DNA of 40,347 nt from a virus. Positions within the stretch are counted from its first letter, which is position 1, and each line of letters begins with the position of its first letter. The notes under the pieces are model-generated. The model was not told the DNA's origin and searched no databases. It saw only the letters and a list, made by a program, of their open reading frames with translations. The position numbers and the translations under genes were made by a program. Location of the stretch: the UHGV virus genome UHGV-0039399. One strand, 5' to 3'. This document shows positions 242 to 28,690 of this stretch, in pieces.

Positions 242-362
242 AGCTCACCCTCCTTTCATGTGACTTTTACGCATTTCAGCGCCACCGGATTTTTAAAGAG
301 CGTTTTATTTTGTTTGCAGTATACAAAACGGATACGTGTAAACAAGAATAAAAGCGCCATTA

Positions 363-378
363 TGTGATATAAATCACA
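363..378. promoter_or_regulatory. perfect 16-bp palindrome TGTGATATAAATCACA (TGTGA-N6-TCACA, CRP-like or operator)
   Basis: Perfect inverted repeat in the intergenic region upstream of the Cys-rich gene; matches the CRP core half-sites with canonical 6-bp spacer. Confidence 0.35.
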
Positions 379-400
379 CAATGACGCCATTTTGTAAATT

Positions 401-1189
401 TCAGTCCGGCAAAACGCGATTGAGCGTATTACGATTGATGGCCCTGTCGTTAGCAAGGAATACAGCACGGGCAAATCCGCGCGGCGTTAGTGAGCGGATC
501 ATCTTAGTGCGTTTCGACTTTCCGCCTAACTTAGCGTGCTGTTTACTGTCTTCCCATTCGTCCGGCATTGGTACAGGACGAAACAGCGGCTGTTTAAATC
601 CGTTGCCGCACCAAATACAAGTTTTCTTCGTGTATGCGTCGCGGGCCGCTATGTATTCAGGGAAAGCAGGATGTTTGTCATCTTCCGGCAGGTAGCCACC
701 GTAAGCGCACGGGTTGAAGATAAAATCAGGTTTACGCCATAGCGTTGACAGTGCGCCCACCGGATTTTCCACCATCCACGGCACGTTGTGCATATCCGCC
801 AGTTTTTCTACCAGTTTTGCGCTATTCGCCGCCTTCACCTGGAAGTCAGGATCTTTTTTCCGTTTATCAGCGAACCAGCGAGCGCCAGACACGGCGAGAT
901 CGTCGCACGGCGGAAAACCCAGGATAATATCAGGCTCCGGGTAAACTGATAATTCAGGCGAGAACATCACCAGGAAATGACTGTCAATCCATACGTTAAC
1001 ATATTCAATATTCGGATGAATGATTTTAACGCCTTCATAATCGCCGTGATTTGCGCCGTCATAGTTGAAGCAATAGCACTTATATCCCGCTTCCGCCCAG
1101 TCTTTAACGGCGTACCCGCTGCCGTCGTACAGCGACCATACAACCCAACTTCTTAGCCAGTTATTTAACCAGTGTTTAGCCTTGCTCAT
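401..1189 (-). CDS. DNA cytosine-5 methyltransferase-like protein
   Basis: 262-aa ORF; motif I-like LYDGSGY, PC-like motif GFPPC and ENV-like motif MVENPVG at spacing resembling C5-MTases. Confidence 0.5.
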   Translation of the reverse strand: MSKAKHWLNNWLRSWVVWSLYDGSGYAVKDWAEAGYKCYCFNYDGANHGDYEGVKIIHPNIEYVNVWIDSHFLVMFSPELSVYPEPDIILGFPPCDDLAVSGARWFADKRKKDPDFQVKAANSAKLVEKLADMHNVPWMVENPVGALSTLWRKPDFIFNPCAYGGYLPEDDKHPAFPEYIAARDAYTKKTCIWCGNGFKQPLFRPVPMPDEWEDSKQHAKLGGKSKRTKMIRSLTPRGFARAVFLANDRAINRNTLNRVLPD

Positions 1190-1689
1190 TTTCTGCCCTC
1201 AAACGTGAAATAGCGGCGCATGATGATAGTGATCACCGTTACCGCCGCCATTTTTGAGATGAATTGCATCGCTGATATTTCCGGCATAAACGCCATAAAC
1301 GATAGCGTGGGGAAAATTAACGCATCCCCGATGGCTGAAGCTATATTTGCAGGCCAGCGCTTCGAATCGAAATCACCAGGCAAAACCCGGTAAACACCAC
1401 CAGAAATAAGCGCACCGGAAACAACCGCGACAAATGACGCTATAGCCACCATTCCGGCATCGTAATTTATCATTACCGTGATTGCGCCAGCGGCGGCGCA
1501 TGTTGTAGCCGACCATTTCAGGCCGCCGTCATATAACAGGAAGTCGCGGATCATCATATTGACACACACAGCGGCTACCGTAGTGATAGGAATTACCCAC
1601 GGGCCGCAATGGTTAACAATCAGGTTGATGATCACGAAAACGGCGACATAAACGCAGGCCAATAACCTGTCAATTGTCACCTTTTTCAT
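1186..1689 (-). CDS. integral membrane protein (multi-TM; function unknown)
   Basis: Highly hydrophobic ORF with several predicted TM helices; start refined to the ATG (MKKVTID) with GAGGT RBS at about -10. Confidence 0.5.
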   Translation of the reverse strand: MKKVTIDRLLACVYVAVFVIINLIVNHCGPWVIPITTVAAVCVNMMIRDFLLYDGGLKWSATTCAAAGAITVMINYDAGMVAIASFVAVVSGALISGGVYRVLPGDFDSKRWPANIASAIGDALIFPTLSFMAFMPEISAMQFISKMAAVTVITIIMRRYFTFEGRK

Positions 1690-2167
1690 TTGGGTCATAC
1701 CTCTTGTCGCGGATAGCTTCAGATCTGTCAAAACTCAAATCAAGCCGAGTTGAAATACAACCACATTGAGGATTAAGCATTGAAGGTGGCAACCCCTTAC
1801 AGCTTGTTATTGCTCCGTCATTTATTATTCCGTCATTAATATTGGCGGCAGTGAACTGATTTTTCTTCAACTCCTCTTCGCGATCATTCAATATTTGCTC
1901 AGCTTTAAGCGCGTTGTAGCTGATTAGGTCAACCAAAGTGTCTTCCGGATCGCTACCATTAGCCAAAATGGCTTCCAAACGCGCCTCCTTAAGACAAATC
2001 AACATATCCCATACATCAAGCGGGGTTAAATTTGCTCCCTTCTTAGCGTTGTATATAGTGGCTATTTTTGGCGCTGATTTTTCTTGTTTTCTGTCGTATC
2101 CGTTTTGTTTACCCCTTTGCTCGATTGTTTCCGCTGCAAGTCGTAGTAAATCTGCTGCATTAGTCAT
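1670..2167 (-). CDS. hypothetical phage early protein
   Basis: ORF with AAGAGGTG RBS before the internal ATG (MTNAADLL); sits in the leftward early operon. Confidence 0.5.
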   Translation of the reverse strand: MTNAADLLRLAAETIEQRGKQNGYDRKQEKSAPKIATIYNAKKGANLTPLDVWDMLICLKEARLEAILANGSDPEDTLVDLISYNALKAEQILNDREEELKKNQFTAANINDGIINDGAITSCKGLPPSMLNPQCGCISTRLDLSFDRSEAIRDKRYDPNEKGDN

Positions 2168-2699
2168 TATCTGCACCTCTTGCATATAGCTCTTTACGTG
2201 TTATGTGAGTAAAAATGCATTCATGTTTGCACCGTGGATGCCAGATCAAAAACAAGCTGCCTTTGTTGTTTCCGCTTACTGGCTTACCCGTCGCAGCATT
2301 GATAAACGCCAGCCGCCCGCGCGTGACCAATCGGCACTCATTTGCCGTCTCAACGCCGTTCATGAACCAGCTAACAGAAATGTCAGCGGGCAACAACATC
2401 ACGCAACCGATGTGATTCCGTTGATGTTCGAGCGCAGCTTTATCAACAAATGGACCAGGATTTGAGTATGGCGGATTCATCCATACATAATCACCAGGCA
2501 TAGCCACCGCTCCCCACGGATAATGCAACGTGTCCATTTCTTCGGTTATATATCGCGGAACTAGCGCGTTTTCCTTATTTGCCGCAACATCAGCGACGAA
2601 TTCGAACTCACGATCCATTCCCTTGAAAACTGGTTTAGGCGTCTGCCACAGGTCTTTAATTTCCTTCGGCGTGTTGCTGCCTCCGAAATCATTTTTCAT
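2160..2699 (-). CDS. phage Dam-type DNA N6-adenine methyltransferase
   Basis: Small MTase with NPPY catalytic motif (YVWMNPPYS); start refined to ATG with GGGGG RBS. Confidence 0.6.
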   Translation of the reverse strand: MKNDFGGSNTPKEIKDLWQTPKPVFKGMDREFEFVADVAANKENALVPRYITEEMDTLHYPWGAVAMPGDYVWMNPPYSNPGPFVDKAALEHQRNHIGCVMLLPADISVSWFMNGVETANECRLVTRGRLAFINAATGKPVSGNNKGSLFLIWHPRCKHECIFTHITRKELYARGADND

Positions 2700-2710
2700 T
2701 ATTGCCCCCA

Positions 2711-2944
2711 CTAAAAATAATCCTGGTCAGTTCCCCATCGGTTATTGAGATACCCCACCAACCATACAAAACGCTCAATGCTGATCAGCGGGGCGACCTT
2801 GCGATAATGCTTTTCTAATATCAGCCGCGTAGCTTTATCGCTGTAGCCGTTCCTTTCTACCTCTGCTTTGCAGGCAGAAAGCGCCGCACGCGCGGCAGTT
2901 TTTACGGCGTTGAATTGCGGCTCTGACAGGTTGAATAAAGCCAT
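2711..2944 (-). CDS. hypothetical protein
   Basis: ORF translationally coupled to the upstream gene (stop-A-ATG); alternative TTG start at 3001. Confidence 0.4.
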   Translation of the reverse strand: MALFNLSEPQFNAVKTAARAALSACKAEVERNGYSDKATRLILEKHYRKVAPLISIERFVWLVGYLNNRWGTDQDYF

Positions 2945-2945
2945 T

Positions 2946-3188
2946 TTATAAATCATCAGTAGAATCAGCGAAAAAGAACCCGATAAATACGCTGGCAGCA
3001 ATAATAATCCTTAACATATAAAGCGCATCATCAGATGATGGCATCTCTGGTAGTTCCCATGTAATAAAAGACACACCGCATAAAATTCCAATAAAAACAG
3101 TTGCTATACATGAAAATACGAAAAAAGAACAGAACAACAAGCCTACGATGAAGTCAACAAATGCACGCATCATTTTAAACGTCCTCAA
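2946..3188 (-). CDS. small membrane protein
   Basis: 80-aa ORF with two hydrophobic segments. Confidence 0.5.
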   Translation of the reverse strand: MRTFKMMRAFVDFIVGLLFCSFFVFSCIATVFIGILCGVSFITWELPEMPSSDDALYMLRIIIAASVFIGFFFADSTDDL

Positions 3189-3378
3189 TCACTCCGCCTT
3201 GCACGCGCTCCTTAATGTCCCACGTATGCGGTTTACATAACTCATGGTAATAATGATCCGGCCTGCTGCCGAAATACCATTTACCTTCCATATAAAAATA
3301 AACGCCCGAAAAAATTCCGGGCGCTGCCTTTGTTGCTGATTCTGGAATTTTCCAGTCTTTGTACTGTTTAAACTTCAT
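3175..3378 (-). CDS. hypothetical protein
   Basis: 67-aa ORF in a tightly packed same-strand array. Confidence 0.45.
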   Translation of the reverse strand: MKFKQYKDWKIPESATKAAPGIFSGVYFYMEGKWYFGSRPDHYYHELCKPHTWDIKERVQGGVIEDV

Positions 3379-3559
3379 ACATTAACACCGCCTTTTTAAG
3401 TGCGCTTAATTCAAAGTGCATAAGACGAAAATGTTGTACACCACCAACAATACTGACCTGATAAATATCACCTACGCAGTTATAGTAATAACAACCAAAT
3501 TGACCGATTCCGGCTAATTTAGCGTTATCCGGTATCATGTATTCGCCAACCTTTTTCAT
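3368..3559 (-). CDS. hypothetical protein
   Basis: 63-aa ORF, overlapping-stop coupling with neighbours. Confidence 0.45.
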   Translation of the reverse strand: MKKVGEYMIPDNAKLAGIGQFGCYYYNCVGDIYQVSIVGGVQHFRLMHFELSALKKAVLMYEV

Positions 3560-3562
3560 AGA

Positions 3563-3655
3563 TCACCTCATATGGTATTCAATAAACCACCTGACAAACA
3601 GGCATAAGGCAATAAAACCCCAGCAAATGCACATGAATAGCAATGAATCGTCCAT
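3563..3655 (-). CDS. small hydrophobic peptide (30 aa)
   Basis: Manually found ORF MDDSLLFMCICWGFIALCLFVRWFIEYHMR with GAGG RBS; its stop lies 3 nt before the next start. Confidence 0.25.
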   Translation of the reverse strand: MDDSLLFMCICWGFIALCLFVRWFIEYHMR

Positions 3656-3657
3656 AG

Positions 3658-3876
3658 TTAAGCCTCGAATAATGCGTAGTCGAATTTTCCCAAATATCTT
3701 TCAAGGCTGACTATCTCAACGCCATCAGCGCACCGCTTCCATACAGACACCTGTTGTTCATTTTCCCGGAAGTGCATATTAGAAAGCACTTCATCTGCTG
3801 GATAGCTTTTCCCGGCGACGTAGGAATCATGTCCCACGCCACCTTCTACGCAATAAAGCATCAATTCGCGTGCCAT
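3658..3876 (-). CDS. hypothetical protein
   Basis: 72-aa ORF; upstream intergenic region carries promoter-like elements and the CAAAACGGAT motif. Confidence 0.5.
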   Translation of the reverse strand: MARELMLYCVEGGVGHDSYVAGKSYPADEVLSNMHFRENEQQVSVWKRCADGVEIVSLERYLGKFDYALFEA

Positions 3877-3975
3877 CTTGTTTCCCTCCGTGCTGTAAAC
3901 CTTTCGATTTCAGTTTACAAAACGGATTTGCGATCACAACACAAAACGTATAGTTATGTAATCGCAATCACAATA

Positions 3976-4596
3976 TTAATGGAGTACGCGCTTTTCAGGT
4001 TCAGGCATTGGCTGTGCCATTTTACGCGCTTCATTAAGCACGCTTATTACCGCCTGCACGCCCAAATCATTCGCACGCATGTTAATATCAACCATTTCGC
4101 CATAAAACATCGGCATGATCGCCCTTACGTCTTCTTCGTTGTGCCCTTCATCAATGCACTTCTGTAGCGCTTTGGCCTCAAATATTTTCTTCATCACGCC
4201 GCGCACAGAATACAGTGCAGCGCTTCCCATATGGTTTTCGTCCAACGGGAAGATAACAGCACTTCCGAACGCCAGAGGATCAAGATCTTCCGGCACTGGC
4301 ACGCGACCATATTCCTCTTCCATGCGTTTCACGAAAGTTAGGCAGAAGACATAACGAGCTACAGCCGTTTTCTCTTCAGCATCCAGAGACACACAGTCGC
4401 GCATCGACGCTTCCATAACAATATCAGCAACCTGCAACGCCAGGTTCAAATCTGCGTCATACGCGCCAGCATCCATATCTTTAATGACTTCGTGATAATC
4501 CTTCGTTTCAACTTCATGATAACTTGCATCTTCAGCGTAACGAGTGATTAACATTCCGTCATTGCCGAGTGAATAAGCAGTTTTGATGTCTTTCAT
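3976..4596 (-). CDS. hypothetical protein (acidic, 206 aa)
   Basis: Long ORF with plausible protein composition; no recognisable motif. Confidence 0.6.
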   Translation of the reverse strand: MKDIKTAYSLGNDGMLITRYAEDASYHEVETKDYHEVIKDMDAGAYDADLNLALQVADIVMEASMRDCVSLDAEEKTAVARYVFCLTFVKRMEEEYGRVPVPEDLDPLAFGSAVIFPLDENHMGSAALYSVRGVMKKIFEAKALQKCIDEGHNEEDVRAIMPMFYGEMVDINMRANDLGVQAVISVLNEARKMAQPMPEPEKRVLH

Positions 4597-7396: not shown

Positions 7397-7687
7397 TTAA
7401 TGATAACGGACTCTGTCTAGCGGAATTTCACCAAGATTGCGCGGTTGCGTTGCGTGGAAGTAGTTTCCGCTTTCATTTTCCGCATACCATTTTACCGCTC
7501 CTTTGCGGCGTTCTTTTTTGCCATCCTGCTTACATCTTTCGTCGCTTGCCATTCGAATGGCTTTTTCAACGTTGTCAGTTTTGTTGATTGCAGGCGATGA
7601 TTTTCTTTCGTTTTCTCTTCTTATTCTTCTGCGTTCCCTGGCATTCAGTTTGCTTTCACATTTGCCGTACATGATTGTAACTGTCAT
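7397..7687 (-). CDS. N-like transcription antiterminator (P22 gene-24-like)
   Basis: N-terminus MTVTIMYGK...NARERRRIRR resembles P22 gp24 as I recall it, with an arginine-rich motif; first gene downstream of the putative PL/nutL; AAGGAG RBS. Confidence 0.75.
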   Translation of the reverse strand: MTVTIMYGKCESKLNARERRRIRRENERKSSPAINKTDNVEKAIRMASDERCKQDGKKERRKGAVKWYAENESGNYFHATQPRNLGEIPLDRVRYH

Positions 7688-7821: not shown

Positions 7822-7850
7822 AATATACGCCACGTAAAAACACCAGTCAA
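7822..7850 (-). promoter_or_regulatory. candidate PL promoter (-35 TTGACT, 17-bp spacer, -10 TATATT)
   Basis: Near-consensus sigma70 hexamers on the minus strand, upstream of nutL and the N-like gene. Confidence 0.5.
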
Positions 7851-7949
7851 CACATTTTGTATACTTTTTTGTAAAATTTATAAGCCATTGATATTTAAAC
7901 AATAAACATAGCTTTCTGTTTACGTTTTGGTGTTTTTATGGCAAAGAAA

Positions 7950-7972: not shown

Positions 7973-8620
7973 TTATGGCAGGTTTACGATCTTCGCATCA
8001 ACAACCACGCCAATGATTTTTGATTCTGGATTCATAGGGATCGGCGGGTACAACGGATTAAGTGAACGCAAAAGTTTTCTGCCTCCATCAGTAATCAACT
8101 GTTTAAACGTCGGTGTCTGCCCTTCCTCCAGTTGGGCTATAACCAGTTTGCCATCAATAGCTGGCGCGTGCGGGTCAACAAGTATCATAGTACCCGCCGG
8201 GATGCTTAACCCCTGAGGCGCGTTCATTGATTCACCTTTGGCAACCAGCCAGTAACTATCATCTGAACAAATAACGCTAGTCGTAACGTGTGGTAATGTT
8301 GATCGGCGTGTGTCTTCCATATTGTTTGCTGCGTCCTTCCAGTCAACAACCGGGTAACTTCCTAAATCACGAGGTGGCGCTCCCGGCAACGTGTTAGAAA
8401 CAGAATCATCAATGACCATACCATCATGAGTAACAGTGAATTGCCGACGCCCAAGCGCCCGCATGATCCGCGCAATATCTTCAAGATTCGGCTCACGGCG
8501 ACCGTTCAGCCAGTGAGAAAGGCCACCTTTAGTTATCCCCATAAGATCAGCCAATGAATCCTGGCTCATGCCCTGCGCCCGCATGAGTTGTTTTGCTAAG
8601 TCATACCATTTTGTTTTCAT
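7973..8620 (-). CDS. cI: CI-type repressor (HTH plus LexA-like S24 peptidase domain)
   Basis: N-terminal XRE-type HTH (QDSLADLMGITKGGLSHWLNG) and C-terminal autocleavage domain with the GESM serine motif; divergent from the rightward operon. Confidence 0.9.
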   Translation of the reverse strand: MKTKWYDLAKQLMRAQGMSQDSLADLMGITKGGLSHWLNGRREPNLEDIARIMRALGRRQFTVTHDGMVIDDSVSNTLPGAPPRDLGSYPVVDWKDAANNMEDTRRSTLPHVTTSVICSDDSYWLVAKGESMNAPQGLSIPAGTMILVDPHAPAIDGKLVIAQLEEGQTPTFKQLITDGGRKLLRSLNPLYPPIPMNPESKIIGVVVDAKIVNLP

Positions 8621-8925
8621 ATCGCTACCCTATAACCTAAAAAATTTTGATGCAAGTCACAAAATGTATTTTTCAATCCTTGATCTATTAACAACATTCT
8701 GTAAACTTGCTGACAAGGTAAGGCCATAGTTGCAAGGATGCAAGGAAAAAGATAAGGGAAAGCACAAAAGGCAAAAGCCTTAAGCTCTTTAAAAATCCGG
8801 TGGCGCTGCAATGCGTAAAACAAATATCACGCAACGGCGGGATCTGTTAAGCGGTCAATCACTGCTATCTAATGCCAATGGGATGCCCGCCCGCGCGTTC
8901 ACTCTAACCATAGGAGAAAACACGA
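8621..8925. promoter_or_regulatory. immunity-region divergent promoter/operator region (PRM/PR-equivalent)
   Basis: 305-bp AT-rich intergenic region between cI and the first rightward gene; contains TGCAAGG direct repeats and an ACAAAATGT motif also present near PL. Confidence 0.5.
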
Positions 8926-9179
8926 TGAGTATGAACATGATTAGCAAAGCATGGAACGTAAAACTTAACAGCCCGATCCAAAAACTTGTCTTAATTGCGT
9001 TTGCAGAAAAGGCAGACAACAAGGGCCGCGCACACGCTTCACGCGAAGAGATTGCAAAAGTCTGCGAACTGCCACTGCATACTACTGTTGACGCATTAAA
9101 CTCATTAATCCGCAAAGGATTCATTAAACGCGCTGACGAATACGGCGAAATTTATGACATTGCTTTGCCTGAGGAATGA
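8926..9179 (+). CDS. winged-helix DNA-binding protein (first gene of the rightward operon, Cro position)
   Basis: AGGAG RBS 9 nt upstream; predicted wH/HTH segment; the longer 8811 start has a weaker RBS. Confidence 0.5.
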
Positions 9180-9182
9180 TCT

Positions 9183-10100
9183 ATGAAGTGGTTTAAACAT
9201 GATAGCGATGCGAACCGCGACGAAAAACTTCAAAACGTTTTGTTAGATTATGGCCTGGAAGGTTATGGGCTTTATTGGTATTGCCTCGAACTGATAACTT
9301 ATGACGTAGATCAGCACAACCTCAATTTTGACCTTCGACATGATGCCAGAATCATCGCGCGTAACGTCGGATCGACTGAGAAGCGCATTGAGGAAATGAT
9401 GAAATACTTTATCGAAATTGGTCTATTCGAATGTTCTCAGGGGCATATAACTTGTTTAAAGTTATTAAAAAGGCTGGACCAATCAATGACATCTAAAAGC
9501 GCATATAGGGCAGCCATAAACACAGCGAAGGAGCAATTAAAATTAGAAAAGCTAATCAATACAGCGCCAAAGGGTCATGATGAGGTCATGATTGGGTCAT
9601 GTCAGGGTCATGATAGGGTCATGACCGGGTCATGGCAGGGTCATGAATTAGAATTAGAAGAAGAAAGAGAAAAAGAAAAAGAAAAAAACATATTGATCAG
9701 CGATGCTGATCGAAACGCTTTCGAAGACATCTTCTGGCCTGCATACCCACGGAAGGTTAACAAGCAGGCAGCGTTTAAGTCATTCAAAACGAGAGCAAAG
9801 GAATGGGTGAAGGAAAACAAATCAACTGTCCAGGCTTTCGCGGAAATGCTGGTTAAAGATCTTGAGCGCAGGAAAGGTTGGTTCGGTAGCGACAAGTTGC
9901 ACCCAACAACATATCTGAACCAGAAACGCTGGCTTGATGAACCGGAAGGAGGTAACAACCAGGATAGCAATGTTGAAGGTAAGAAGCTGCGCCGCATCGT
10001 CGGGAAGAGTGGTCAGATTTACGAACGAATGTTAACGGATGATGAGTATAACGAATATCTCCGACGGTTCGCGGAGTGGCAGAAATCACAACACGCTTGA
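9183..10100 (+). CDS. replication initiator / replisome organizer (O-like)
   Basis: N-terminal MKWFKHDSDANRDEKL...YGLYWYC domain typical of phage replisome organizers; iteron array embedded in the coding sequence as in lambda O. Confidence 0.75.
   Translation: MKWFKHDSDANRDEKLQNVLLDYGLEGYGLYWYCLELITYDVDQHNLNFDLRHDARIIARNVGSTEKRIEEMMKYFIEIGLFECSQGHITCLKLLKRLDQSMTSKSAYRAAINTAKEQLKLEKLINTAPKGHDEVMIGSCQGHDRVMTGSWQGHELELEEEREKEKEKNILISDADRNAFEDIFWPAYPRKVNKQAAFKSFKTRAKEWVKENKSTVQAFAEMLVKDLERRKGWFGSDKLHPTTYLNQKRWLDEPEGGNNQDSNVEGKKLRRIVGKSGQIYERMLTDDEYNEYLRRFAEWQKSQHA
9573..9649 (+). repeat. seven direct GGTCATG iterons at exact 11-bp phasing
   Basis: GGTCATG starts at 9573, 9584, 9595, 9606, 9617, 9628 and 9639. 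Confidence 0.75.
9573..9713. promoter_or_regulatory. candidate origin of replication (iterons, purine/A-rich tract, GATC-containing palindrome)
   Basis: Iterons are followed by an A/G-rich stretch (9646-9690) and the inverted repeat GATCAGC-gat-GCTGATC with two Dam sites; this mirrors ori-lambda inside gene O. Confidence 0.65.
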
Positions 10101-10233
10101 GTATTCATTAGTGTCAGAAATCGAAAATAACCAACCAAACAAGCCCACCAGCGAGCTAAATTGCATTAGGCGCTACACTTGCATACCTTTAGCTGTTTAG
10201 CTCGTTAGAGAGCGTTTTAGAGAGGATCTAAAA

Positions 10234-10335
10234 ATGGACGGTAAACACGTTTTCGCCCTGTCTTTTGCCATCGCTGCGGCAATCGCCGTTAACGTTGCAT
10301 TGTTCGGCGGTTTGTTCCTTCTTGTCAATCCATAA
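10234..10335 (+). CDS. small hydrophobic peptide (33 aa)
   Basis: Manually found ORF MDGKHVFALSFAIAAAIAVNVALFGGLFLLVNP with AGAGAGGA RBS. Confidence 0.3.
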   Translation: MDGKHVFALSFAIAAAIAVNVALFGGLFLLVNP

Positions 10336-10467
10336 CCTTCATATCAGTCTGTAAATCAAAAATTAGCCACCTGAGAGAGTCTATAACGCAATAAGACACT
10401 GCAACCTGTGCAAACGGGTGTCGCGGTGGGATTTTTGCGTTGTAGCGCGTTTTACGGAGAAATTACA

Positions 10468-11238
10468 ATGTCTGAATTAATGGTGTTTGATAACGTAAAA
10501 ATGACAAGCGCTGAAATTGCTGAGTTGGTCGGAAGTCGCCACGCAGATATTAAACGAAGCATTGAGAGGCTTGTTAAAAATGGCGTTATCCGGCAACCGC
10601 CAACGGCGTTTCTCGAAAGAATCAATAACTTAGGGTTTAAGGTAAAAGATGACGTCTACGTCTTTGAAGGGGAGCAAGGCAAGAGAGATAGTATCATTGT
10701 TGTAGCTCAAAACTGCCCTGAATTTACGGCACGACTTGTTGATCGCTGGCAGGAACTTGAAAACACAGTCCGGCAAAATGCTGTTCCAAATTACGGTAAC
10801 ACGCAGATCGGTAATGTTCTTGCTTTCGCAGAAACAGCAAGTCGAATGCTGAATATGAGCAATTCGGGTAAGCTGGGGATGCTACAGAAAATCGAAAAGG
10901 AATATAATATTCCTCCTATCCTTCCACATTATGCTATCGACGCTCCTGTTGATGCGGTAGACGGATCAAGTCGTGTGACCAAATCACTGACAGCATTGTT
11001 GGAAGAAAATAACGTTGGCATGACTGCGCGGGAGGTTTACCCAATCCTTGAGCGCAAGGGCATTGTTGAACGCAAGTATCGTAAAGCACGATGCGGCGAA
11101 AAAAGATTCTGGAATGTAACTGTGCATGGCCTGCGATACGGCAAAAACATAACCAACCCGTCTAACCAGAGAGAAACGCAGCCACACTTCTATGAATCAA
11201 GATTTAAAGAGTTGTTGAATATTATTTTTTCTGAATGA
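10468..11238 (+). CDS. Rha-family phage regulatory protein
   Basis: N-terminus MTSAEIAELVGSRHADIKRSIERL matches the Rha N-terminal DNA-binding signature; GGAG RBS. Confidence 0.7.
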   Translation: MSELMVFDNVKMTSAEIAELVGSRHADIKRSIERLVKNGVIRQPPTAFLERINNLGFKVKDDVYVFEGEQGKRDSIIVVAQNCPEFTARLVDRWQELENTVRQNAVPNYGNTQIGNVLAFAETASRMLNMSNSGKLGMLQKIEKEYNIPPILPHYAIDAPVDAVDGSSRVTKSLTALLEENNVGMTAREVYPILERKGIVERKYRKARCGEKRFWNVTVHGLRYGKNITNPSNQRETQPHFYESRFKELLNIIFSE

Positions 11239-11271
11239 GTATACATTTTGTGAACCGGAGGAATTAACATT

Positions 11272-12390
11272 ATGTGTCAAAGAAAAATCTCGGATGAGGA
11301 ACTTATCACTGAATATAACAATGGTTTAACGTACAAACAGATCGCTGAAAAGTATGGCATGTCAAAACGCAATGTCGAACGCCTGGGCGCAAAACTGGCG
11401 AAGCGCGGTTTAATATCAACGCGTCGCGCTCCTGGTTTTGGTGTTAATGGCGAGTCGTTGCTAGTCGATAAAAACGGCAATGTTATCATGCGCTGGATTA
11501 AAACAGCCCGTGACCGCGAAGAAATGGAACAGCTAATGGAAGCGGCCCGCGACGCTTTAACGGATGAAATACCACGCGCGGAGGCTGTGCCAGTGCCGGA
11601 AATTGATTTTCAAAAAAGCCTGGCCCTTTATCCGGTGTTTGACCTGCACATCGGGGCGCTTGCTCACAAAGCGGAATGTGGCGAGAGCTACGACACTGGG
11701 ATCGCTGAACGCGTGTTAAATGACTTCTTTGACTACGCCGTTGGCGCTGCCCCTATGAGTGAAAAAGCGGTTCTGCTTCTCGGTGGCGACCTGCTTCACA
11801 CTGACGGATTGTTGCCAGTGACGCCATCAAGCAATCACGTTCTTGATTGCGATAGTCGCTATGCAAAACTTGTTTATGTGGCGATCCGGGCGGTACGTCG
11901 TGCGGTCGGGAAAATGTTGCTGAACCACAAGGATATTGAAATTCAGGTATTATCAGGCAACCACGACCAGTCTGGTATGATTTGGCTACGTGCTGCGCTG
12001 GCGGCTTTTTACGAAGATGAACCACGCGTGACTGTTGATGTGTCACCTACTATCGTACACCACACGCAGTACGGGAAAACATTCCTTGCTTACCACCACG
12101 GGCACACTATCAAAAAACCGGAAAACCTATTGGCTGCTTGCGTGGCTGACTGGCGCGAAGATTTCGGCAAGTCTGCGGCTGTTTACGCCCACTGCGGGCA
12201 CTGGCATCATCAAAGGATGATTGAATCATCGTTGGGCGTTGTTGAGTATCACGGCACGTTAGCTGGCAAGGATGCGTATTCGACTAATGGAGGATGGCGG
12301 TCGCGTCGCCTGGCAGCGGTTATTATTTACAGCCCGGATCATGGTGAAATCGGGCGCTTTGTTTATTACCCTGAATTTTCCATTTTGTAA
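11272..12390 (+). CDS. HTH domain fused to a calcineurin-like metallophosphoesterase
   Basis: N-terminal HTH (LTYKQIAEKYGMSKRNVERL), then phosphoesterase motifs in order: DLH, GGDLLH, SGNHD, HHGH, GHWHH; GGAGG RBS. Confidence 0.6.
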   Translation: MCQRKISDEELITEYNNGLTYKQIAEKYGMSKRNVERLGAKLAKRGLISTRRAPGFGVNGESLLVDKNGNVIMRWIKTARDREEMEQLMEAARDALTDEIPRAEAVPVPEIDFQKSLALYPVFDLHIGALAHKAECGESYDTGIAERVLNDFFDYAVGAAPMSEKAVLLLGGDLLHTDGLLPVTPSSNHVLDCDSRYAKLVYVAIRAVRRAVGKMLLNHKDIEIQVLSGNHDQSGMIWLRAALAAFYEDEPRVTVDVSPTIVHHTQYGKTFLAYHHGHTIKKPENLLAACVADWREDFGKSAAVYAHCGHWHHQRMIESSLGVVEYHGTLAGKDAYSTNGGWRSRRLAAVIIYSPDHGEIGRFVYYPEFSIL

Positions 12391-12428
12391 ACTAAATGCA
12401 ATGCCGTAATGGCTCTGGAGGTGAATAT

Positions 12429-14312
12429 ATGACACCGAAAGAATTGGATTCGTTATTGTGGCAGCAAGTTGAGAAGGTGGCCCGTCACCTCCTGCCTAAC
12501 GGCAAGAAGGATGGGCATGAATGGGTAGCCGGAAATACTAACGGCGACAGCGGTAAGAGTCTGAAGATCAACCTCAACGGGAAAAACAAATGGGCTGATT
12601 TCGCTGAGGGTGAATCGGGCGACCTGCTTGATTTATGGATGTTGTGCCGTGGTATTCCACTCCACATTGCAATGAAGGAAGCTAAAGCATTTTTAGGCAT
12701 CAAGGACGATGATCATCATTTTGTGTCAAAGCAGGATAAGAAGTTTAAAAAGCCTGATCGGGAACACATAAGAAAATACTTATCGAAAGGTGAGCGCCAC
12801 ATTGAGTACCTGGAAGGCCGGGGAATATCAAGGGAGATCATCAAAAAATACGAGGTAACACTGGGTAAGGTTTTTGATGGCAAATCTAATCTTGATGCCC
12901 TGGTTTTTCCTTACAAACGTGACGGTGAACTACTGCAAGTTAAACGAATCGGGATTGATCGCCCTAACGGTAAAAAAATAATAATGGCAGAGGCAGAATG
13001 CGAACCTTGCTTGTATGGATGGAACGGACTGGATGATGGTGTGAGGGCTGTCGTTCTTTGTGAGGGTGAAATTGACTGCCTGTCTTACGCTCAGTATGGG
13101 ATTTCAGCGCTATCAGTGCCGTTTGGTGGAGGTAAGGGAGCAAAACAACAATGGATCGAATTCGAATATCATAATCTCGACAGGTTCGAGGAAATTTATA
13201 TTTCAATGGATAACGATGACGTTGGCAGGGAAGCGACAAGGGAAATAGCTACAAGGCTGGGTGAGCACCGCTGCCGAATGGTTAAGCTACCACGCAAGGA
13301 TATTAACGAATGCCTTACTGATGGCATCCCTGAGGATGAAATATGGAATTGCATCGCTTCGGCTGAATACTTTGATCCTGATGAGTTGTATTCTGCAAGG
13401 GAGTTTTATCAGGACACGATAAACGCTTTCTACGGAAAAGAGCAATACCTTTTTACTTCTCCGTGGGCAAAACTTAATTACAACTTCAAGTTTCGCGGCT
13501 CTGAGTTAACAATACTGAGCGGCTACAACGGCAGCGGTAAGACTGAGATCGTGGGCCATATGGTATTGGAAGCAATAAAACAGGGAGTCAAAACTTGCGT
13601 CGCATCACTTGAGATAAAGCCTGGCATATTGCTTAAGCGCTTAACCAGGCAAGCGACATGCTGCAACCAACCGCCAATGATTGAGATTGATTCAGCATTT
13701 AAACTTTATGATGACCGATTATGGATATTCGGTCTGACAGGGACGGCAAAGGCTGAAAGGCTGCTTGAAATTTTCGAATATGCGAGCAGAAGATACGGCG
13801 TTAAGCTGTTTGTTATTGACAGCCTGATGAAATGCGGGATTGGCGAGGATGACTATAACGGGCAAAAGGCATTCATCGATGCCATTTGTGACTTCAAAAA
13901 CAAAACTGGCGTTCATGTAATTCTCGTGACCCACTCAAGGAAGGGTATCTCTGAAGATACGCCGTCGGGGAAAATGGATGTGAAGGGTAGCGGCTCTGTA
14001 ACCGACCTCACCGATAACCTGTTAATCATCTGGAGGAACAAGAAACGCGAAAGATTGATGGCTGAACTGGCTGACTCGATGATGCCTGCTGATGCAGATC
14101 AACAAAAAATATTGAATGAGGCTAGTTCTTACCTGATTATGGAAAAACAACGAAACGGAGAAGGCTGGGAGGGCAAAATACCTTTAAGCCTTGATCTTAA
14201 TTCGCATCAATTCCTTGAACCAGACACGCCGTCGCCATACAGCTACATAGCCAACATGACAAAAGCAGATTATGACGAAGTGTGGATCAATGAAAACGTA
14301 ACCCTATCGTAA
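12429..14312 (+). CDS. bifunctional DNA primase / replicative helicase (TOPRIM plus DnaB/RecA-like ATPase)
   Basis: TOPRIM motifs (VVLCEGEIDCLS, SMDNDDVGRE) followed by Walker A GYNGSGKTE and Walker B-like VIDSL; GGAGGTG RBS. Confidence 0.85.
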   Translation: MTPKELDSLLWQQVEKVARHLLPNGKKDGHEWVAGNTNGDSGKSLKINLNGKNKWADFAEGESGDLLDLWMLCRGIPLHIAMKEAKAFLGIKDDDHHFVSKQDKKFKKPDREHIRKYLSKGERHIEYLEGRGISREIIKKYEVTLGKVFDGKSNLDALVFPYKRDGELLQVKRIGIDRPNGKKIIMAEAECEPCLYGWNGLDDGVRAVVLCEGEIDCLSYAQYGISALSVPFGGGKGAKQQWIEFEYHNLDRFEEIYISMDNDDVGREATREIATRLGEHRCRMVKLPRKDINECLTDGIPEDEIWNCIASAEYFDPDELYSAREFYQDTINAFYGKEQYLFTSPWAKLNYNFKFRGSELTILSGYNGSGKTEIVGHMVLEAIKQGVKTCVASLEIKPGILLKRLTRQATCCNQPPMIEIDSAFKLYDDRLWIFGLTGTAKAERLLEIFEYASRRYGVKLFVIDSLMKCGIGEDDYNGQKAFIDAICDFKNKTGVHVILVTHSRKGISEDTPSGKMDVKGSGSVTDLTDNLLIIWRNKKRERLMAELADSMMPADADQQKILNEASSYLIMEKQRNGEGWEGKIPLSLDLNSHQFLEPDTPSPYSYIANMTKADYDEVWINENVTLS

Positions 14313-14408
14313 CCGCACAAGTAATTTTTAAATCAATATGAGCAAACGGCTTGCCAGAAAGTTTACCGCTTTCTGGTGGCTGTTATCGCGTTTTAAACGA
14401 GGCCAAAA

Positions 14409-14966
14409 ATGAACGCTGAAATTGAAACAAAAATTATTAATATCCTTGAACTTGACGGCATCGCAACAATGCACCAGTTACGCCAGAAAACAGGGTTATT
14501 GGCTGGGTATGATAAGGACGGAATCATGCCTGAGACAATTAAACACTTAATAAAAAACGGTATCGTCGAGCGCGTGTATACATGTTTTGGACGCCGTCGC
14601 AGACTACTGGGTTATCGTATTAAACAGTTATATGCTGAACGTCGCGAGCGCGTCGCTGCGTTATTTGGTGACTACAGCGTTAAAAAGCGTATGCGCGACA
14701 TTAGCGCGGAAACAGGTATTCCGTGGAATTATCTATCTCGTACTCTGCGTTTAATGGTTATTGATGAAACGCTTTGCGTTGACCCTAACCGACACGGGGT
14801 TAATTTTTACTCTCTGTTTAAACCTGGGCGATTCGGTCACGCTAATGATTTGGCTTTTGACTTTGACAGACGCCTGAACGAATACCGGAAAAATAACGGC
14901 CTGCTACCGGATAAACCAATATTTGAGATCGAAAAACTTAACGGCGAAACGGGGTTGGAATTATGA
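14409..14966 (+). CDS. hypothetical protein (possible winged-helix N-terminus)
   Basis: 185-aa ORF after the primase-helicase. Confidence 0.55.
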   Translation: MNAEIETKIINILELDGIATMHQLRQKTGLLAGYDKDGIMPETIKHLIKNGIVERVYTCFGRRRRLLGYRIKQLYAERRERVAALFGDYSVKKRMRDISAETGIPWNYLSRTLRLMVIDETLCVDPNRHGVNFYSLFKPGRFGHANDLAFDFDRRLNEYRKNNGLLPDKPIFEIEKLNGETGLEL

Positions 14967-15169
14967 GACGGGTAATTTTTTATTCAGTTGAAACGTTTAT
15001 TGACGAATCTCACTTTAAATTCCCATGCGATCCTTGCGGCGCGATGGTTTATACGCCTCCACTAATGCGCAAATACAGGCACGTAAAATTTAACCGGGCT
15101 TTTGTGCCGATTCGTTACGCTTTGCAGGCGTTGCGCGGTGAATTACGAAACACAATGCGGATTGTGTAA
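14963..15169 (+). CDS. hypothetical protein
   Basis: 68-aa ORF with ATGA overlap to the upstream gene. Confidence 0.4.
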   Translation: MRRVIFYSVETFIDESHFKFPCDPCGAMVYTPPLMRKYRHVKFNRAFVPIRYALQALRGELRNTMRIV

Positions 15170-15179
15170 GGTGGCGATC

Positions 15180-15377
15180 ATGAACAGGGAATTGGAATTG
15201 ACAGTTGAAGACTTAAGCACAATTGCGGAATACATGCGCTGCGGCGATCCTGATAAGCCTGTTGTTGTTGATATGAGGTACTTAAAAAGCGCTTTTATGA
15301 CAAGCTCGCGCCTAATTTCTTTGCGGGCGATCATGTATGCGCGGGCACAGTGGAAAAATAGCAACGGTGTATTATGA
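15180..15377 (+). CDS. hypothetical protein
   Basis: Start refined to ATG with AAGGTGG RBS (65 aa); stop overlaps the ninB start. Confidence 0.4.
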   Translation: MNRELELTVEDLSTIAEYMRCGDPDKPVVVDMRYLKSAFMTSSRLISLRAIMYARAQWKNSNGVL

Positions 15378-15805: not shown

Positions 15806-15981
15806 TGGTTCGTTACTACATGGCTAAACCTACAGGCATTTTATACAAGATTGATGGCGAATACGTTTATTACTTTCACAATCAGGCGCGTGATTGGCGA
15901 TTGTGTCACGCGCACTTTAAGCACGAAATAGAAAACCACCCTGAATATTTTATCAAAGTTGACAATGTAACGGTGGCGTAA
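15805..15981 (+). CDS. hypothetical nin-region protein
   Basis: 58-aa ORF, TAATG overlap with ninB; GGGGG RBS. Confidence 0.45.
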   Translation: MVRYYMAKPTGILYKIDGEYVYYFHNQARDWRLCHAHFKHEIENHPEYFIKVDNVTVA

Positions 15982-15982
15982 T

Positions 15983-20916: not shown

Positions 20917-20925
20917 ATTCTACCA
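20917..20925 (-). promoter_or_regulatory. candidate extended -10 (TGgTAGAAT) for the tail fiber gene
   Basis: Minus-strand TGGTAGAAT about 30 nt upstream of the start codon, in the divergent intergenic region. Confidence 0.3.
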
Positions 20926-28637: not shown

Positions 28638-28690
28638 TTTATCACCTTGTCATTTTGTGATCGCCATCACGCTAAATCATACCAAAACGG

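Follow-up and report, generated by a model that had tools for sequence, protein, structure and literature searches.

A dispersed 17-bp operator-like palindrome at promoter regions of an mEp021-related phage

Repeated words in two spacers and the palindrome around them

The window, that is, the whole stretch of 40,347 nucleotides of viral DNA that was analysed, belongs to a relative (identity 85-93%) of the mEpimmI coliphages mEp021 and mEp554. The repressor gene and the features of two spacers, hereafter Region 1 (318-345) and Region 2 (3912-3953), are as follows.

7973-8620, minus strand: cI, CI-type repressor gene (HTH_3 and S24 peptidase)
269-302, minus strand: nutR2, with boxA CGCTCTTTAAAAATCCGG (302-285) and boxB GGCGCTGAAATGCGT (283-269)
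345-318, minus strand: Region 1 promoter-like pair in the sequence, TTGTTT 345-340, 16 nt, TATACT 323-318
319-335, minus strand: Region 1 operator-like site GTATCC-GTTTT-GTATAC, PWM score 24.4 bits
353-388, minus strand: hairpin of an intrinsic terminator, just ahead of the Region 1 promoter, 16 pairs and a T run (terminator scan)
3939-3912, minus strand: Region 2 promoter-like pair, TTGTGA 3939-3934, 16 nt, TAAACT 3917-3912
3913-3929, minus strand: Region 2 proximal site AAATCC-GTTTT-GTAAAC
3937-3953, minus strand: Region 2 distal site CTATAC-GTTTT-GTGTTG, PWM score 18.4 bits
3957-3972: CRP-like palindrome TGTAATCGCAATCACA

The initial annotation had drawn attention to the recurrent words CAAAACGG and ACAAAACGTAT, which turn out to be real and conserved copies of one 17-bp operator-like site. 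A motif search finds CAAAACGGAT on the plus strand where it had been reported, at 324-333 within the Region 1 site and at 3918-3927 within the Region 2 proximal site, and CAAAACGGTT at 28683-28692 (plus strand). For ACAAAACGTAT, the copy at 20957-20967 was correctly placed, but the second one, given as 3951-3961, lies 10 bases away at 3941-3951, within the Region 2 distal site. All of these copies fall in non-coding spacers and adjoin -35/-10-like hexamers. Two further copies had been overlooked, CAAAACGGAT at 2098-2107 (minus strand, within ORF 1670-2185) and CAAAACGGTT at 34213-34222 (plus strand, within a small ORF). The former is a coding coincidence: it encodes GKQNGYD, only third codon positions vary (ggA/C/T; 27 distinct relatives), and it does not track the G/A state of the 324 copy in relatives.

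The argument that an exact 10-mer seen twice speaks against chance does not hold, since 2878 distinct 10-mers occur at least twice in the window, compared with about 1951 in Markov simulations. The words themselves are enriched in the window, with 5 CAAAACGGWT observed for 0.40 expected, 2 ACAAAACGTAT for 0.04, and 8 members of the merged family ACAAAAYGKAT for 0.26; 7 of these 8 are non-coding, non-coding DNA being 9.1% of the window (binomial P of about 4e-7 by our own arithmetic). Besides, in an unbiased count of 8-mers over the 45 intergenic segments, ACAAAATG ranks first with 7 segments, and ACAAAACG occurs in three more. The exact 10-mers are not the conserved unit, as a G/A wobble runs through them: at 324, 3941 and 20957, most relatives carry A (CAAAATG) where the window has G (CAAAACG).

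The unit is a 17-bp imperfect palindrome with the consensus GTAT(A/C)C-N5-GTA(T/A)AC and a centre that is usually (A/G)TTTT, of which the reported words are the A/T-rich centre plus one half-site. Searched without its centre and with at most one mismatch, TATAC-N5-GTATA occurs 5 times in the window for 0.75 expected. Two registers recur. In a proximal copy, as at Region 1 and at the Region 2 proximal site, the palindrome overlaps the spacer and the -10, the right half GTAWAC providing the -10 hexamer (TAWACN) of a sigma-70-type promoter; in a distal copy, 24-25 bp further upstream, the right half enters the first three bases of the -35. Copies so paired lie at 3921/3945 (24 bp centre to centre), 7831/7856 and 33900/33925. 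The original proposal of sites for a common regulator or of a conserved promoter module is supported, on comparative grounds, in both its halves, the palindrome being found on the -35 edge or the -10 at each place it named and at the two early promoters that flank cI as well.

Conservation in related phages, on which that proposal had been made to depend, is strongest precisely there: among 30-32 distinct IMG/VR relatives, no other part of the Region 1 and Region 2 spacers is as well conserved as the core AT(A/C)C(A/G)TTTTGT, and conservation of the motif is also seen at both early promoters and at the late sites. At Region 1, the block GTATCC(A/G)TTTTGTATACT is invariant between variable flanks (31 distinct relatives). 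At Region 2, TATAC(A/G)TTTTGT is conserved at the distal site, and 29 of 30 distinct relatives share an unchanged ATCCGTTTTGT at the proximal site, including some in which the downstream gene is a different one. In about half of the relatives, the -10-like hexamer of Region 2 is degraded to TAAGCC or TAAGTC while the core stays invariant, which argues for selection on the site and not merely on the promoter hexamer.

The predicted start of the Region 1 promoter lies about 9 nt before nutR2, a site positioned downstream of the cytosine methyltransferase gene (PMC11893012). In relatives, its boxA is invariant and its boxB stem covaries (cagCGC..GCGtag versus cCCGC..GCGGaa). The upstream terminator, annotated TERM_4 in mEp021, has a perfect palindrome, TGTGATATAAATCACA (363-378), as its apex.

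Copies at the early promoters and before the tail-module cassettes

Around cI and in the 11-12 kb segment, the following elements were found.

7850-7822, minus strand: main early promoter, TTGACT 7850-7845, 17 nt, TATATT 7827-7822, with nutR1 and the N-like gene downstream
7848-7864, minus strand: its distal site GTATAC-AAAAT-GTGTTG, overlapping the first 3 nt of the -35
7823-7839, minus strand: its proximal site TTTTAC-GTGGC-GTATAT, from the centre-free palindrome scan, without the T-run centre
7921-7937, minus strand: copy-like block AACACC-AAAAC-GTAAAC just past the cI terminator, with a CAAAACG hit
8655-8627: PRM-like promoter for cI, TTGCAT 8655-8650, 17 nt, TAGGGT 8632-8627, predicted start at the cI ATG
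8655-8671, minus strand: site AAATAC-ATTTT-GTGACT (ACAAAATGTAT on the plus strand), abutting the -35 of that promoter
8646-8661: CRP-like palindrome TTTGATGCAAGTCACA
8680-8707, plus strand: divergent early promoter, TTGATC 8680-8685, 16 nt, TAAACT 8702-8707, preceding nutL
8691-8707, plus strand: site AACAAC-ATTCT-GTAAAC on its spacer and -10
11239-11255, plus strand: copy GTATAC-ATTTT-GTGAAC, preceded by a stop codon and followed by the ribosome-binding site of gene 11272-12390
12376-12392, plus strand: copy TTTTCC-ATTTT-GTAAAC on the last codons and stop of that gene

The main early promoter shows the full layout, its proximal site covering the spacer and -10 at 25 bp from the distal one, and parts of the layout recur at the nutL-side promoter and on the cI promoter side. 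The spacer of the main early promoter differs among relatives, while both proximal half-sites (T(T/A)T(T/A/C)AC ... GTATAT around a variable centre) and the distal GTATACAAAATGG are retained; AAAAAAGTATACAAAATGG(A)TTGACT is invariant (33 distinct relatives), and the opposite strand of 7848-7864, ATCCATTTTGTATACTT, is the identical 17-mer to that of the relatives' Region 1. In the same line, CACCAAAACGTAAAC is nearly invariant at 7921-7937, GTCACAAAA(T/C)GT is conserved at 8655-8671 (24 distinct relatives), and the nutL-side site reads AATTCC-ATTTT-GTAAAC in most relatives versus AACAAC-ATTCT-GTAAAC in the window. No convincing promoter was found adjoining the copies at 11239 and 12376.

The layout recurs before four self-contained cassettes on the opposite strand of the tail gene module, at about 20.9, 28.7, 30.4 and 33.9 kb.

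20953-20969, minus strand: copy AAATAC-GTTTT-GTGTGA, containing the word at 20957-20967, upstream of the lipoprotein gene 21052-21300
20984-21000: second, weaker copy upstream of the same gene
28656-28671: CRP-like palindrome TGTGATCGCCATCACG
28691-28718: promoter of the plus-strand 28.7-kb cassette, TTGATA 28691-28696, 16 nt, TATATT 28713-28718
28701-28717, minus strand: strong copy ATATAC-ATATT-GTAAAA on its spacer and -10
30450-30466, minus strand: copy GAAGCC-ATTTC-GTAAAC (GTTTACGAAATGGCTTC on the plus strand) at the -35 edge
30464-30492: promoter-like pair TTCACA 30464-30469, 17 nt, TATACA 30487-30492, before the next plus-strand cassette
33892-33908, minus strand: distal copy (TTATAC-AAAAT-GTCTTC on the plus strand), reaching three bases into the -35 TTCACT (33906-33911)
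33917-33933, plus strand: proximal copy GTATAC-ATTTT-GTATAA, overlapping the spacer and the -10 TATAAA (33929-33934)

For cross-validation, a PWM was trained only on sites below coordinate 9000, and P values were taken from shuffles of the same spacer. All four late-region cassette spacers contain a copy that this matrix scores as significant, with P values of 0.002-0.006 for the top hits: 12.8 and 10.0 bits for 20953-20969 and 20984-21000 (P 0.002 and 0.010), 10.5 bits for 28701-28717 (P 0.006), 14.7 bits for 30450-30466 (P 0.006) and 18.2 bits for 33917-33933 (P 0.006), the PWM score of 33892-33908 being 14.1 bits. Weak copies were assigned at 20919-20935, 28677-28694 and 30475-30491, and it is the one-base-shifted 28677-28694 copy, at the -35 edge, that holds the word at 28683-28692. 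The inner 15 bp of 33917-33933 form a perfect TATAC-N5-GTATA palindrome (no mismatch), 25 bp from the distal copy. Relatives conserve 20953-20969 as ACAAAATGTAT, as well as 28701-28717 and 33917-33933; four relatives conserve 30450-30466, and four retain 33892-33908 as TTATACAAAATGGCTTC within differing flanks. TTGATA/TATATT is the best promoter match of the late region (10/12), and its cassette ends in a KilAC antirepressor-like gene in which an ANT domain was detected. Repression by CI fits poorly with the usual expectation that cassettes such as the lipoprotein gene are active in the lysogen.

CRP-like boxes neighbour several of these promoters. The window has four palindromes that deviate from TGTGA-N6-TCACA at no more than one position, and each lies 52.5-54.5 bp ahead of the final base of a motif-bearing -10-like hexamer, the box at 3957-3972 being centred at about 52.5 bp, TTTGATGCAAGTCACA at 53.5 bp (from TAAACT) and TGTGATCGCCATCACG at 54.5 bp (from TATATT). 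In relatives, the 8646-8661 box is invariant, the half-sites at 3957-3972 are mostly retained and those at 28656-28671 are conserved, in both of these latter cases around a variable centre. This placement resembles that of class I CRP-dependent promoters (lac type, CRP site at -61.5); the boxes are, however, putative CRP sites neighbouring the motif and not the motif itself, and one of them doubles as the apex of the terminator hairpin.

The candidate binding protein

The element is of an ordinary kind, but undescribed for this phage group; PMC11893012 gives the operators of the repressor as unknown. Its copies exist in number, are enriched, placed on promoters and conserved, and co-occur with CI homologues. 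They are probably operators of the phage's own CI repressor, and lie at the early promoters adjoining cI as well as at six or more promoter regions elsewhere. CI is at least 91.6% identical in all 37 relatives that include the cI region, which fits with the invariance of the sites, although within the phage group, for which no heteroimmune member was available as a control, conservation of CI and conservation of the sites cannot be told apart. Three unrelated phages encode homologous CI proteins. The Klebsiella phage MK422455 and the Enterobacter phage PV844614, whose genomes are otherwise different, encode a CI that is 45-50% identical with nearly the same recognition helix, and in both the cI-cro interval holds three (A/T)ATAC-N5-GT(A/G) sites, at spacings of 33 and 25-26 bp; MK422455 has an extra pair, 25 bp apart, around a promoter after the cI terminator. 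In the Vibrio phage Len, a CI of 40% identity with a different recognition helix goes with three ATTAC-N5-GTAAT palindromes at the same position, so that the half-site changes with the helix, which points to a phage-specific protein tied to cI.

It is considerably less likely that the motif is an intrinsic promoter module without a dedicated regulator, made of a -10 (TAWACT) and a T-rich spacer, or of an A-tract like a proximal UP element just ahead of the -35, and spread by duplication of an ancestral promoter cassette with a CRP-like box. In its favour, the -10 hexamer is at the same time the right half-site at four places (Region 1, Region 2, the nutL-side promoter and 33917-33933), the A-run copies 7848-7864, 28683 and 30450 lie directly upstream of the -35, where an UP element would be, and the arrangement CRP-like box, 17-19 nt, -35, 16 nt, -10 is common to four modules; moreover, Region 1 with nutR2 resembles the nutL-side promoter with nutL, GCTCTTTAAAAATCCGG being common to both. 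Nevertheless, such a module does not account for the Region 2 core, invariant where the hexamer has lost its final T in about half of the relatives, for motifs in both orientations and in two registers relative to the hexamers, or for the promoterless copies (11239, 12376); and in the phages with CI homologues, the three cI-cro sites have variable centres and a half-site that follows the recognition helix.

Equally improbable is a real binding site for some other factor. This could be a regulator from the phage itself, either Cro-like or early, or one of the host's nucleoid or transcription proteins (Fis, IHF or DnaA, for instance). The symmetry of the site is below that of classical lambda-type operators, the left half favouring TCC and the right half TAC, and the (A/G)TTTT centre is in most copies no less conserved than the half-sites; this is atypical of a helix-turn-helix protein that binds as a dimer and would suit an asymmetric or bending one. 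Besides, no Cro gene was identified, the first gene after nutL (HTH_36) existing as several alleles or being absent among homoimmune relatives, and a Cro analogue would be expected to use the same operators as CI. Against this stand the poor manual match to the consensus sequences of IHF, Fis, DnaA, LexA, TyrR and PurR and the half-site that tracks the CI helix in the unrelated Vibrio phage.

It is very unlikely that the conserved blocks merely mark mosaic junctions, as linkers or boundaries kept by inter-phage recombination and not for any regulatory role: homology with relatives begins exactly at copy 11239-11255 and stops just past copy 12376-12392, and some relatives have other genes behind Regions 1 and 2, right after the conserved block, yet junctions at regulatory spacers are the usual outcome of module exchange and not a function, and the dyad, the 24-25 bp pairs, the fixed -35/-10 register and the immunity-promoter copies are left unexplained. 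Least credible of all is chance, the composition of spacers with 59-67% A+T in a window where 10-mers repeat by thousands, or an RNA element such as a hairpin with CCGUUUUGUAAAC, as chance is rejected by region-matched shuffles, the 12-pair RNAalifold hairpin of Region 2 keeps every pair but lacks compensatory double changes, several copies lie upstream of the transcription start or are oppositely oriented and so cannot act in RNA, and Rfam gave no matches.

Known repressor systems and the early regulon

The CI/Cro operators of lambda, P22 and 434 (OR1-3, OL1-3) are likewise 17-bp sites of partial dyad symmetry, and the window copies resemble them in covering -35 and -10 elements of the early promoters that flank cI, in being about 24 bp apart when neighbouring, and in including one copy whose centre falls near -42 of the cI promoter, which is weak and apparently leaderless. 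The repressor, with its HTH and S24 peptidase, is 31% identical to lambda CI and about 41% to P22 C2. In contrast to the lambda type, the sequence is of the TATAC-N5-GTATA type with a strongly conserved T-run centre, cI runs in the same direction of transcription as the N-like operon, and copies extend beyond the immunity region to at least eight further loci. A single repressor acting at many sites along the genome is known from the C1 operators of P1, the conserved inverted repeats of phiC31 and the stoperators of mycobacteriophage L5, which, like the sites described here, lie mainly in short intergenic spaces and at secondary promoters. In P1 and L5, repressor monomers bind asymmetric sites, and L5 stoperators act within transcription units in a strict orientation. 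Unlike in these three systems, the window combines a lambda-like repressor with copies that mostly coincide with promoter hexamers and are often paired.

Under the CI operator reading, a dimer of the CI-type repressor would bind each 17-bp site. In the lysogen, repressor on all sites would keep every secondary promoter silent, and upon infection or loss of repressor these promoters would fire jointly as an early regulon, Regions 1 and 2 being two putative internal promoters of a long early operon. As for the nut sites of mEp021 (boxA/boxB, N-like antitermination; PMC11893012), Region 1 lies immediately upstream of nutR2, and the motif-bearing early promoters precede nutR1 and nutL; the motif itself remains outside boxA/boxB, ends about 17 nt before boxA and would act, if at all, on DNA. 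With their predicted start just ahead of nutR2, Region 1 transcripts could be modified by the N-like antiterminator, which would explain the need of this phage group for a third nut site.

Repeated words and the site behind them

The initial annotation had reported repeated 10-mer and 11-mer words at 324, 3918, 3951, 20957 and 28683, and had read them as possible sites for a common regulator or as a possible conserved promoter module. These words were indeed found there, apart from corrections to one coordinate and to the copy number: the second copy of ACAAAACGTAT, placed at 3951-3961, actually lies at 3941-3951, and, while the listed copies are all real, two further exact ones had been missed (2098-2107, minus strand, and 34213-34222, plus strand), both within ORFs. 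The accompanying argument, namely that an exact 10-mer is unlikely to occur twice in 40 kb, fails, as 2878 different 10-mers are present at least twice in the window compared to about 1950 in Markov simulations. Despite this, the signal is real. Two word patterns exceed dinucleotide shuffles (5 occurrences versus 0.40 expected, and 2 versus 0.04), the merged word ACAAAAYGKAT has 8 copies in the window versus 0.26 expected, and seven of these eight are non-coding, non-coding DNA representing 9.1% of the window. Besides, a count made without prior gave ACAAAATG as the 8-mer with the widest spread over intergenic segments (7/45), with ACAAAACG bringing three more.

One idea, that the 14-nt complementary copies at 2098 (coding) and 324 pair at long range as RNA, was rejected, since copy 2098 varies at third codon positions only and shows no co-variation with the G/A state of Region 1 (about 318-345 and surroundings, minus strand, before the nut site nutR2); this copy behaves as coding DNA and is a coincidence. 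The heptamer CAAAACG is over-represented overall (23 versus 11 expected), mainly as CAAAACGCG within genes, two copies of this type lying in an internal repeat of the tail fibre gene, where they end at about 22868 and 23870. A scan of IMG/VR for the exact 17-mer GTATCCRTTTTGTATAC returned more than 120 loci, of which those outside the mEp group were put down to coincidence in a database of this size and discarded as evidence, being coding DNA of unrelated low-GC phages, many translating as ...CIQNGY.... The exact 17-mer GTATCCATTTTGTATAC likewise occurs in coding DNA of many unrelated low-GC viral contigs (L051-L170, IMG/VR), often at the N-terminus (MDTKCIQNGY...) of genes that precede low-complexity repeats, and exact 17-mer matches in very large collections therefore need not mean homology.

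Once aligned, all copies resolve into a 17-bp imperfect palindrome, GTAT(A/C)C-N5-GTA(T/A)AC, whose centre is mostly (A/G)TTTT and whose symmetry is broken by TCC on the left against TAC on the right; the copy 33917-33933 contains a perfect 15-bp palindrome (33918-33932). The 15-mer TATACAAAAYGTATA occurs 8 times with at most two mismatches versus 0.13 expected, a figure biased upward because the consensus was derived from the same data, and the centre-free TATAC-N5-GTATA is found 5 times with at most one mismatch versus 0.75 expected. As a fairer test, a weight matrix built from the copies below coordinate 9000 only was run on the four late-region cassette spacers, each of which holds a significant copy (best scores at P of 0.002-0.006 relative to shuffled versions of that spacer). 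Among the assigned copies, several are weak. Compared with textbook operators, the site shows less symmetry, and the degree to which its T-run centre is conserved is unusual; it does display the partial two-fold symmetry over about 17 bp that characterizes lambda-type operators.

For conservation, 40 related loci were taken from IMG/VR via the neighbouring gene 3976-4596 and aligned with the GenBank relatives. In Region 1 (aligned over 241-400), the block GTATCC(A/G)TTTTGTATACT is invariant in 31 distinct sequences, with varying flanks; in Region 2 (about 3912-3953, minus strand; aligned over 3877-3975), ATCCGTTTTGT is invariant in 29 of the 30 distinct sequences and TATAC(A/G)TTTTGT nearly so. 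The relatives available also keep the late copies (20957, 28683/28701, 30450 and 33892/33917), including where their flanks can no longer be aligned. The conservation in related phages on which the earlier proposal hinged thus holds for the core of the site but not for the exact 10-mers: at 324, 3941 and 20957, most relatives carry A where the window has G, and because of this G/A variation the unit is a degenerate site rather than a word. Homology with the relatives begins exactly at copy 11239-11255 and stops just after copy 12376-12392, and some relatives (L014, L042, L043, L047) carry other genes downstream of Regions 1 and 2, the change coming right behind the conserved block; the sites and the mosaic junctions therefore fall together.

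Genomic setting and promoter-like loci

The window is 85-93% identical to mEpimmI coliphages (mEp554, mEp044, mEp010, mEp013, mEp021, mEp515 and MagusPhagus) over its first 8 kb and over 20-36 kb, and its gene layout was drawn from the annotation of these relatives together with the ORF list of the window. All genes from 8620 down to 65 are on the minus strand.

Gene layout of the window
8620 down to 65, minus strand: cI (7973-8620), terminator, main early promoter and nutR1, N-like antiterminator gene (7397-7687), recombination genes, two methyltransferases, NinF-like gene (65-241)
about 8900-16850, plus strand: replication genes
18325-40188, minus strand: tail genes, broken up by four short plus-strand cassettes

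Each of the four cassettes is closed by a strong bidirectional terminator. Those at 21306-21326 and 29780-29800, which close two different cassettes, carry the same 21-nt hairpin AACCCCGCGCGAAGCGGGGTT in opposite orientation, and the other two are similar (31477-31499 and 34627-34652). Near the start of the gene 16812-18011 (399 aa), which we take to be probably an integrase, the 22-bp direct repeat TTTGGTCACTATTTGGTACACA is found at 18016-18037 and 18247-18268, 231 bp apart and with several GACACGATA repeats in between; such an arrangement recalls an attachment region with arm-type sites. At 9231-9242, close to where the replication protein gene (9183-10100) starts, there is a perfect 12-bp palindrome, CAAAACGTTTTG.

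Copies of the 17-bp site occupy two fixed registers relative to promoter-like hexamers, a proximal one on the spacer and -10 and a distal one at the -35 edge, and overlap the -35 and -10 elements of the early promoters flanking cI as lambda-type operators do.

Promoter-like loci carrying the site
TTGACT 7850-7845, 17 nt, TATATT 7827-7822, minus strand: main early promoter, followed by nutR1 boxA/boxB
7848-7864: distal copy, on the first three -35 bases of the main early promoter
7823-7839: proximal copy, on the spacer and -10 of the same promoter, 25 bp from the distal copy
TTGATC 8680-8685, 16 nt, TAAACT 8702-8707: divergent early promoter before nutL
8691-8707: proximal copy on TTGATC/TAAACT; most relatives read AATTCCATTTTGTAAAC, the same module as Region 2
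8627-8655, minus strand: weak PRM-like promoter (TTGCAT, 17 nt, TAGGGT), predicted start at the cI ATG (8620)
8655-8671: copy adjoining the -35 of the weak PRM-like promoter
Region 2: distal and proximal pair, 24 bp apart, on TTGTGA/TAAACT
33.9 kb: distal and proximal pair, 25 bp apart, on TTCACT/TATAAA
28.7 kb: same pair in weaker form, on TTGATA/TATATT
30.4 kb: same pair in weaker form, on TTCACA/TATACA
Region 1: proximal copy, on TTGTTT/TATACT

Centre to centre, the pairs are spaced by 24 bp (3921/3945) or 25 bp (7831/7856 and 33900/33925), and by 25-26 bp in MK422455 and PV844614 (Klebsiella phage ST340-VIM1phi10.1 and Enterobacter phage BHUENT3, respectively), which, as read from the sequence, is the fixed spacing of about two helical turns between adjacent lambda-type operators, one at which bound repressors might cooperate. 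At the main early promoter, the spacer sequence varies among relatives, with both half-sites and the distal copy retained. Near cI, one copy is centred close to -43 of the predicted start, and the position of this start at the ATG suggests a leaderless cI transcript, as from lambda PRM. A consensus promoter scan recovers the main early promoter and 28691-28718, and made no call at the nutL-side promoter, Region 1 or Region 2 (7 or 8 of 12 matches for a threshold of 9/12); its silence on Regions 1 and 2 is uninformative because their matches fall below the threshold of the tool, which missed the nutL-side promoter likewise. On the spacer and -10 of 28691-28718, the strongest late-region promoter, lies an 18-bp near-perfect palindrome (28704-28721, TACAATATG/TATATTGTA); this promoter precedes a cassette with a KilAC antirepressor-like gene (29294-29542), and a second regulator, encoded by the cassette, may use the palindrome as its operator.

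CRP-like palindromes, TGTGA-N6-TCACA
363-378, 3957-3972, 8646-8661 and 28656-28671: CRP-like palindromes
20929-20944 and 30421-30436: weaker copies

With at most one mismatch, four such palindromes are found versus 1.34 expected, all intergenic, at the promoters of Region 1, Region 2, the nutL side and 28.7 kb. All four are located 52.5-54.5 bp upstream of the last base of the motif-bearing -10 hexamer, that is at about -60, so that these candidate boxes have, on sequence, the geometry of class I CRP promoters; in relatives, their half-sites are conserved and their centres variable. The perfect copy 363-378 doubles as the apex of a terminator hairpin, and Vibrio phage Len (L177) has the same palindrome before an operator and boxA. 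Finally, a perfect FNR consensus occurs just once in the window (TTGATTTATATCAA, 20971-20984). It precedes a superinfection-exclusion-type lipoprotein gene (21052-21300), its centre being 41.5 bp upstream of the start that the -10-like GATATT (21007-21012) would give, and is kept in mEp554, MagusPhagus and mEp013.

The site, promoter elements and the CI repressor

Conservation of a sigma-70 -10 element would account for Region 1, whose hexamer TATACT is invariant in relatives, but fails in Region 2, where roughly one relative in two has TAAGCC, TAAGTC or TGAGCC instead of TAAACT; the final T, a key base of the -10, is thereby lost, and the motif core stays intact. Moreover, TG stands at -14/-13, off the extended -10 position, copies occur in both orientations and two registers, no convincing promoter accompanies those at 11239 and 12376, which are located between genes or at gene ends, and the centres vary freely in phages with CI homologues. 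Given the hexamer loss, the orientations and registers, the promoterless copies and the variable centres, the motif is probably more than a promoter element. Nor is it a nut site: the motif (319-335) and the boxA/boxB of nutR2 (302-269) are separate, the latter lying downstream. As for an RNA element, no Rfam family reached threshold anywhere in the window, and the hairpin predicted in Region 2 lacks compensatory changes. Judged by eye against consensus sequences, sites for IHF, Fis, DnaA, LexA, TyrR, PurR and MarA, a sigma-S -10 and CII-type direct repeats all fit poorly.

Outside the immunity region, copies are present at about 0.3, 3.9, 11.2, 12.4, 20.9, 28.7, 30.4 and 33.9 kb, a dispersal known for the operators of P1, phiC31 and L5 and unlike the situation in MK422455, where strong sites do not extend beyond the two flanks of cI. 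Stoperators of the P1, phiC31 and L5 kind would be asymmetric, share one orientation relative to transcription and act within transcription units; here, the sense strand carries the T-run in each of the five copies within the two early operons (319, 3913, 3937, 11239 and 12376), other copies run in the opposite orientation, and most copies fall on promoter hexamers.

The CI repressor of the window is an HTH_3 and S24 peptidase protein, at least 91.6% identical in all relatives of the group; because all of these carry the same CI, the group contains no heteroimmune control, and three phages with otherwise different genomes served as the outside comparison. In ST340-VIM1phi10.1 (CI 49.5% identical), whose recognition helix GITQGGLGHWLNA is almost the same as GITKGGLSHWLNG in the window, three (A/T)ATAC-N5-GT(A/G) copies stand in the short cI-cro spacer at spacings of 33 and 25 bp, and a further pair, 25 bp apart, surrounds the promoter just after the cI terminator, as in the window. 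BHUENT3 (CI 45% identical, near-identical helix GITKGAVSHWLNA) has three copies in its cI-cro spacer, spaced by 33 and 26 bp. In Vibrio phage Len, whose CI is 40% identical and whose helix differs (MSQSAIAHWLGG), three ATTAC-N5-GTAAT palindromes occupy the cI-cro position, and past the next terminator come a TGTGATTTAAATCACA palindrome, another ATTAC-N5-GTAAT copy and a boxA. In this sample of three phages, the half-site follows the recognition helix as for lambda-type operators, so that the site architecture travels with the CI family and the half-site changes with the helix; mainly on this ground, CI is preferred to RNA polymerase or host factors as the protein that would bind the sites. That the copies are functional protein-binding regulatory sites tied to promoters is likely; that the protein bound is CI, a link drawn from the three outside phages, is held with less assurance but is still the favoured reading. 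In PMC11893012, the operators of the mEpimmI repressor are called unknown and no promoters are described.

A possible early regulon in mEpimmI phages

In a lysogen, repressor bound to the site pairs would block RNA polymerase at all motif-bearing promoters, and its loss would let these fire as one early set. Such a regulon would comprise the two immunity promoters, two internal early-operon promoters and the four opposite-strand cassettes of the tail operon, including the KilAC antirepressor-like gene and the exclusion lipoprotein; one of the internal promoters would have arisen by duplication of the promoter-plus-nutL module and would account for the third nut site, nutR2. In addition, cAMP-CRP at a constant position near -60 would help to activate most of the regulon promoters.

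Region 1 immediately follows a terminator (353-388) and precedes the boxA of nutR2 (302-285; boxB 283-269) by about 9 nt. Together with nutR2, it shows the same order of parts as the nutL-side promoter with nutL (8646-8815), GCTCTTTAAAAATCCGG being common to both, and the unit may be a duplicated promoter-nut module. The third of the functional nut sites described in mEp021 is nutR2, which follows the cytosine methyltransferase gene (PMC11893012); Region 1, as a third N-dependent promoter, would explain it. The 120 bp at 269-388 pack the terminator hairpin (353-388), the promoter-like pair (345-318) and the nutR2 boxA/boxB (302-269).

The repressor was reported to be devoid of an Ala-Gly cleavage site and the lysogens not to be UV-inducible; for Rep021, an expression plasmid exists, pRep021 (PMC11893012). 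Since the RecA cleavage site is reported to be lacking, the true switch for induction might be the cassette at 28.7 kb, which ends with the KilAC antirepressor-like gene and would be CI-controlled and CRP-dependent, a repressor-controlled antirepressor unit as part of the switch being speculation. The joint reading, in which a lambda-like CI runs a genome-wide early regulon, mostly CRP-co-activated and with the antirepressor cassette as switch, is tentative and, as a whole, rather unlikely.

The mEpimmI phages, with 48 published genomes, have been described as a new, gut-prevalent family of temperate coliphages, whose repressor and three nut sites were already studied experimentally. This kind of element is well known; its sequence, map and dispersal in the mEpimmI group are new, as far as the literature consulted shows. 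Operators built into promoters are a textbook principle, and the value of the finding therefore lies in annotation and experiment design rather than in concept. If true, it would provide an operator sequence and a testable map of about a dozen repressor-controlled promoters, would simply explain the extra nut site by an extra N-dependent promoter, and would offer a handle on the induction of lysogens that are not UV-inducible.
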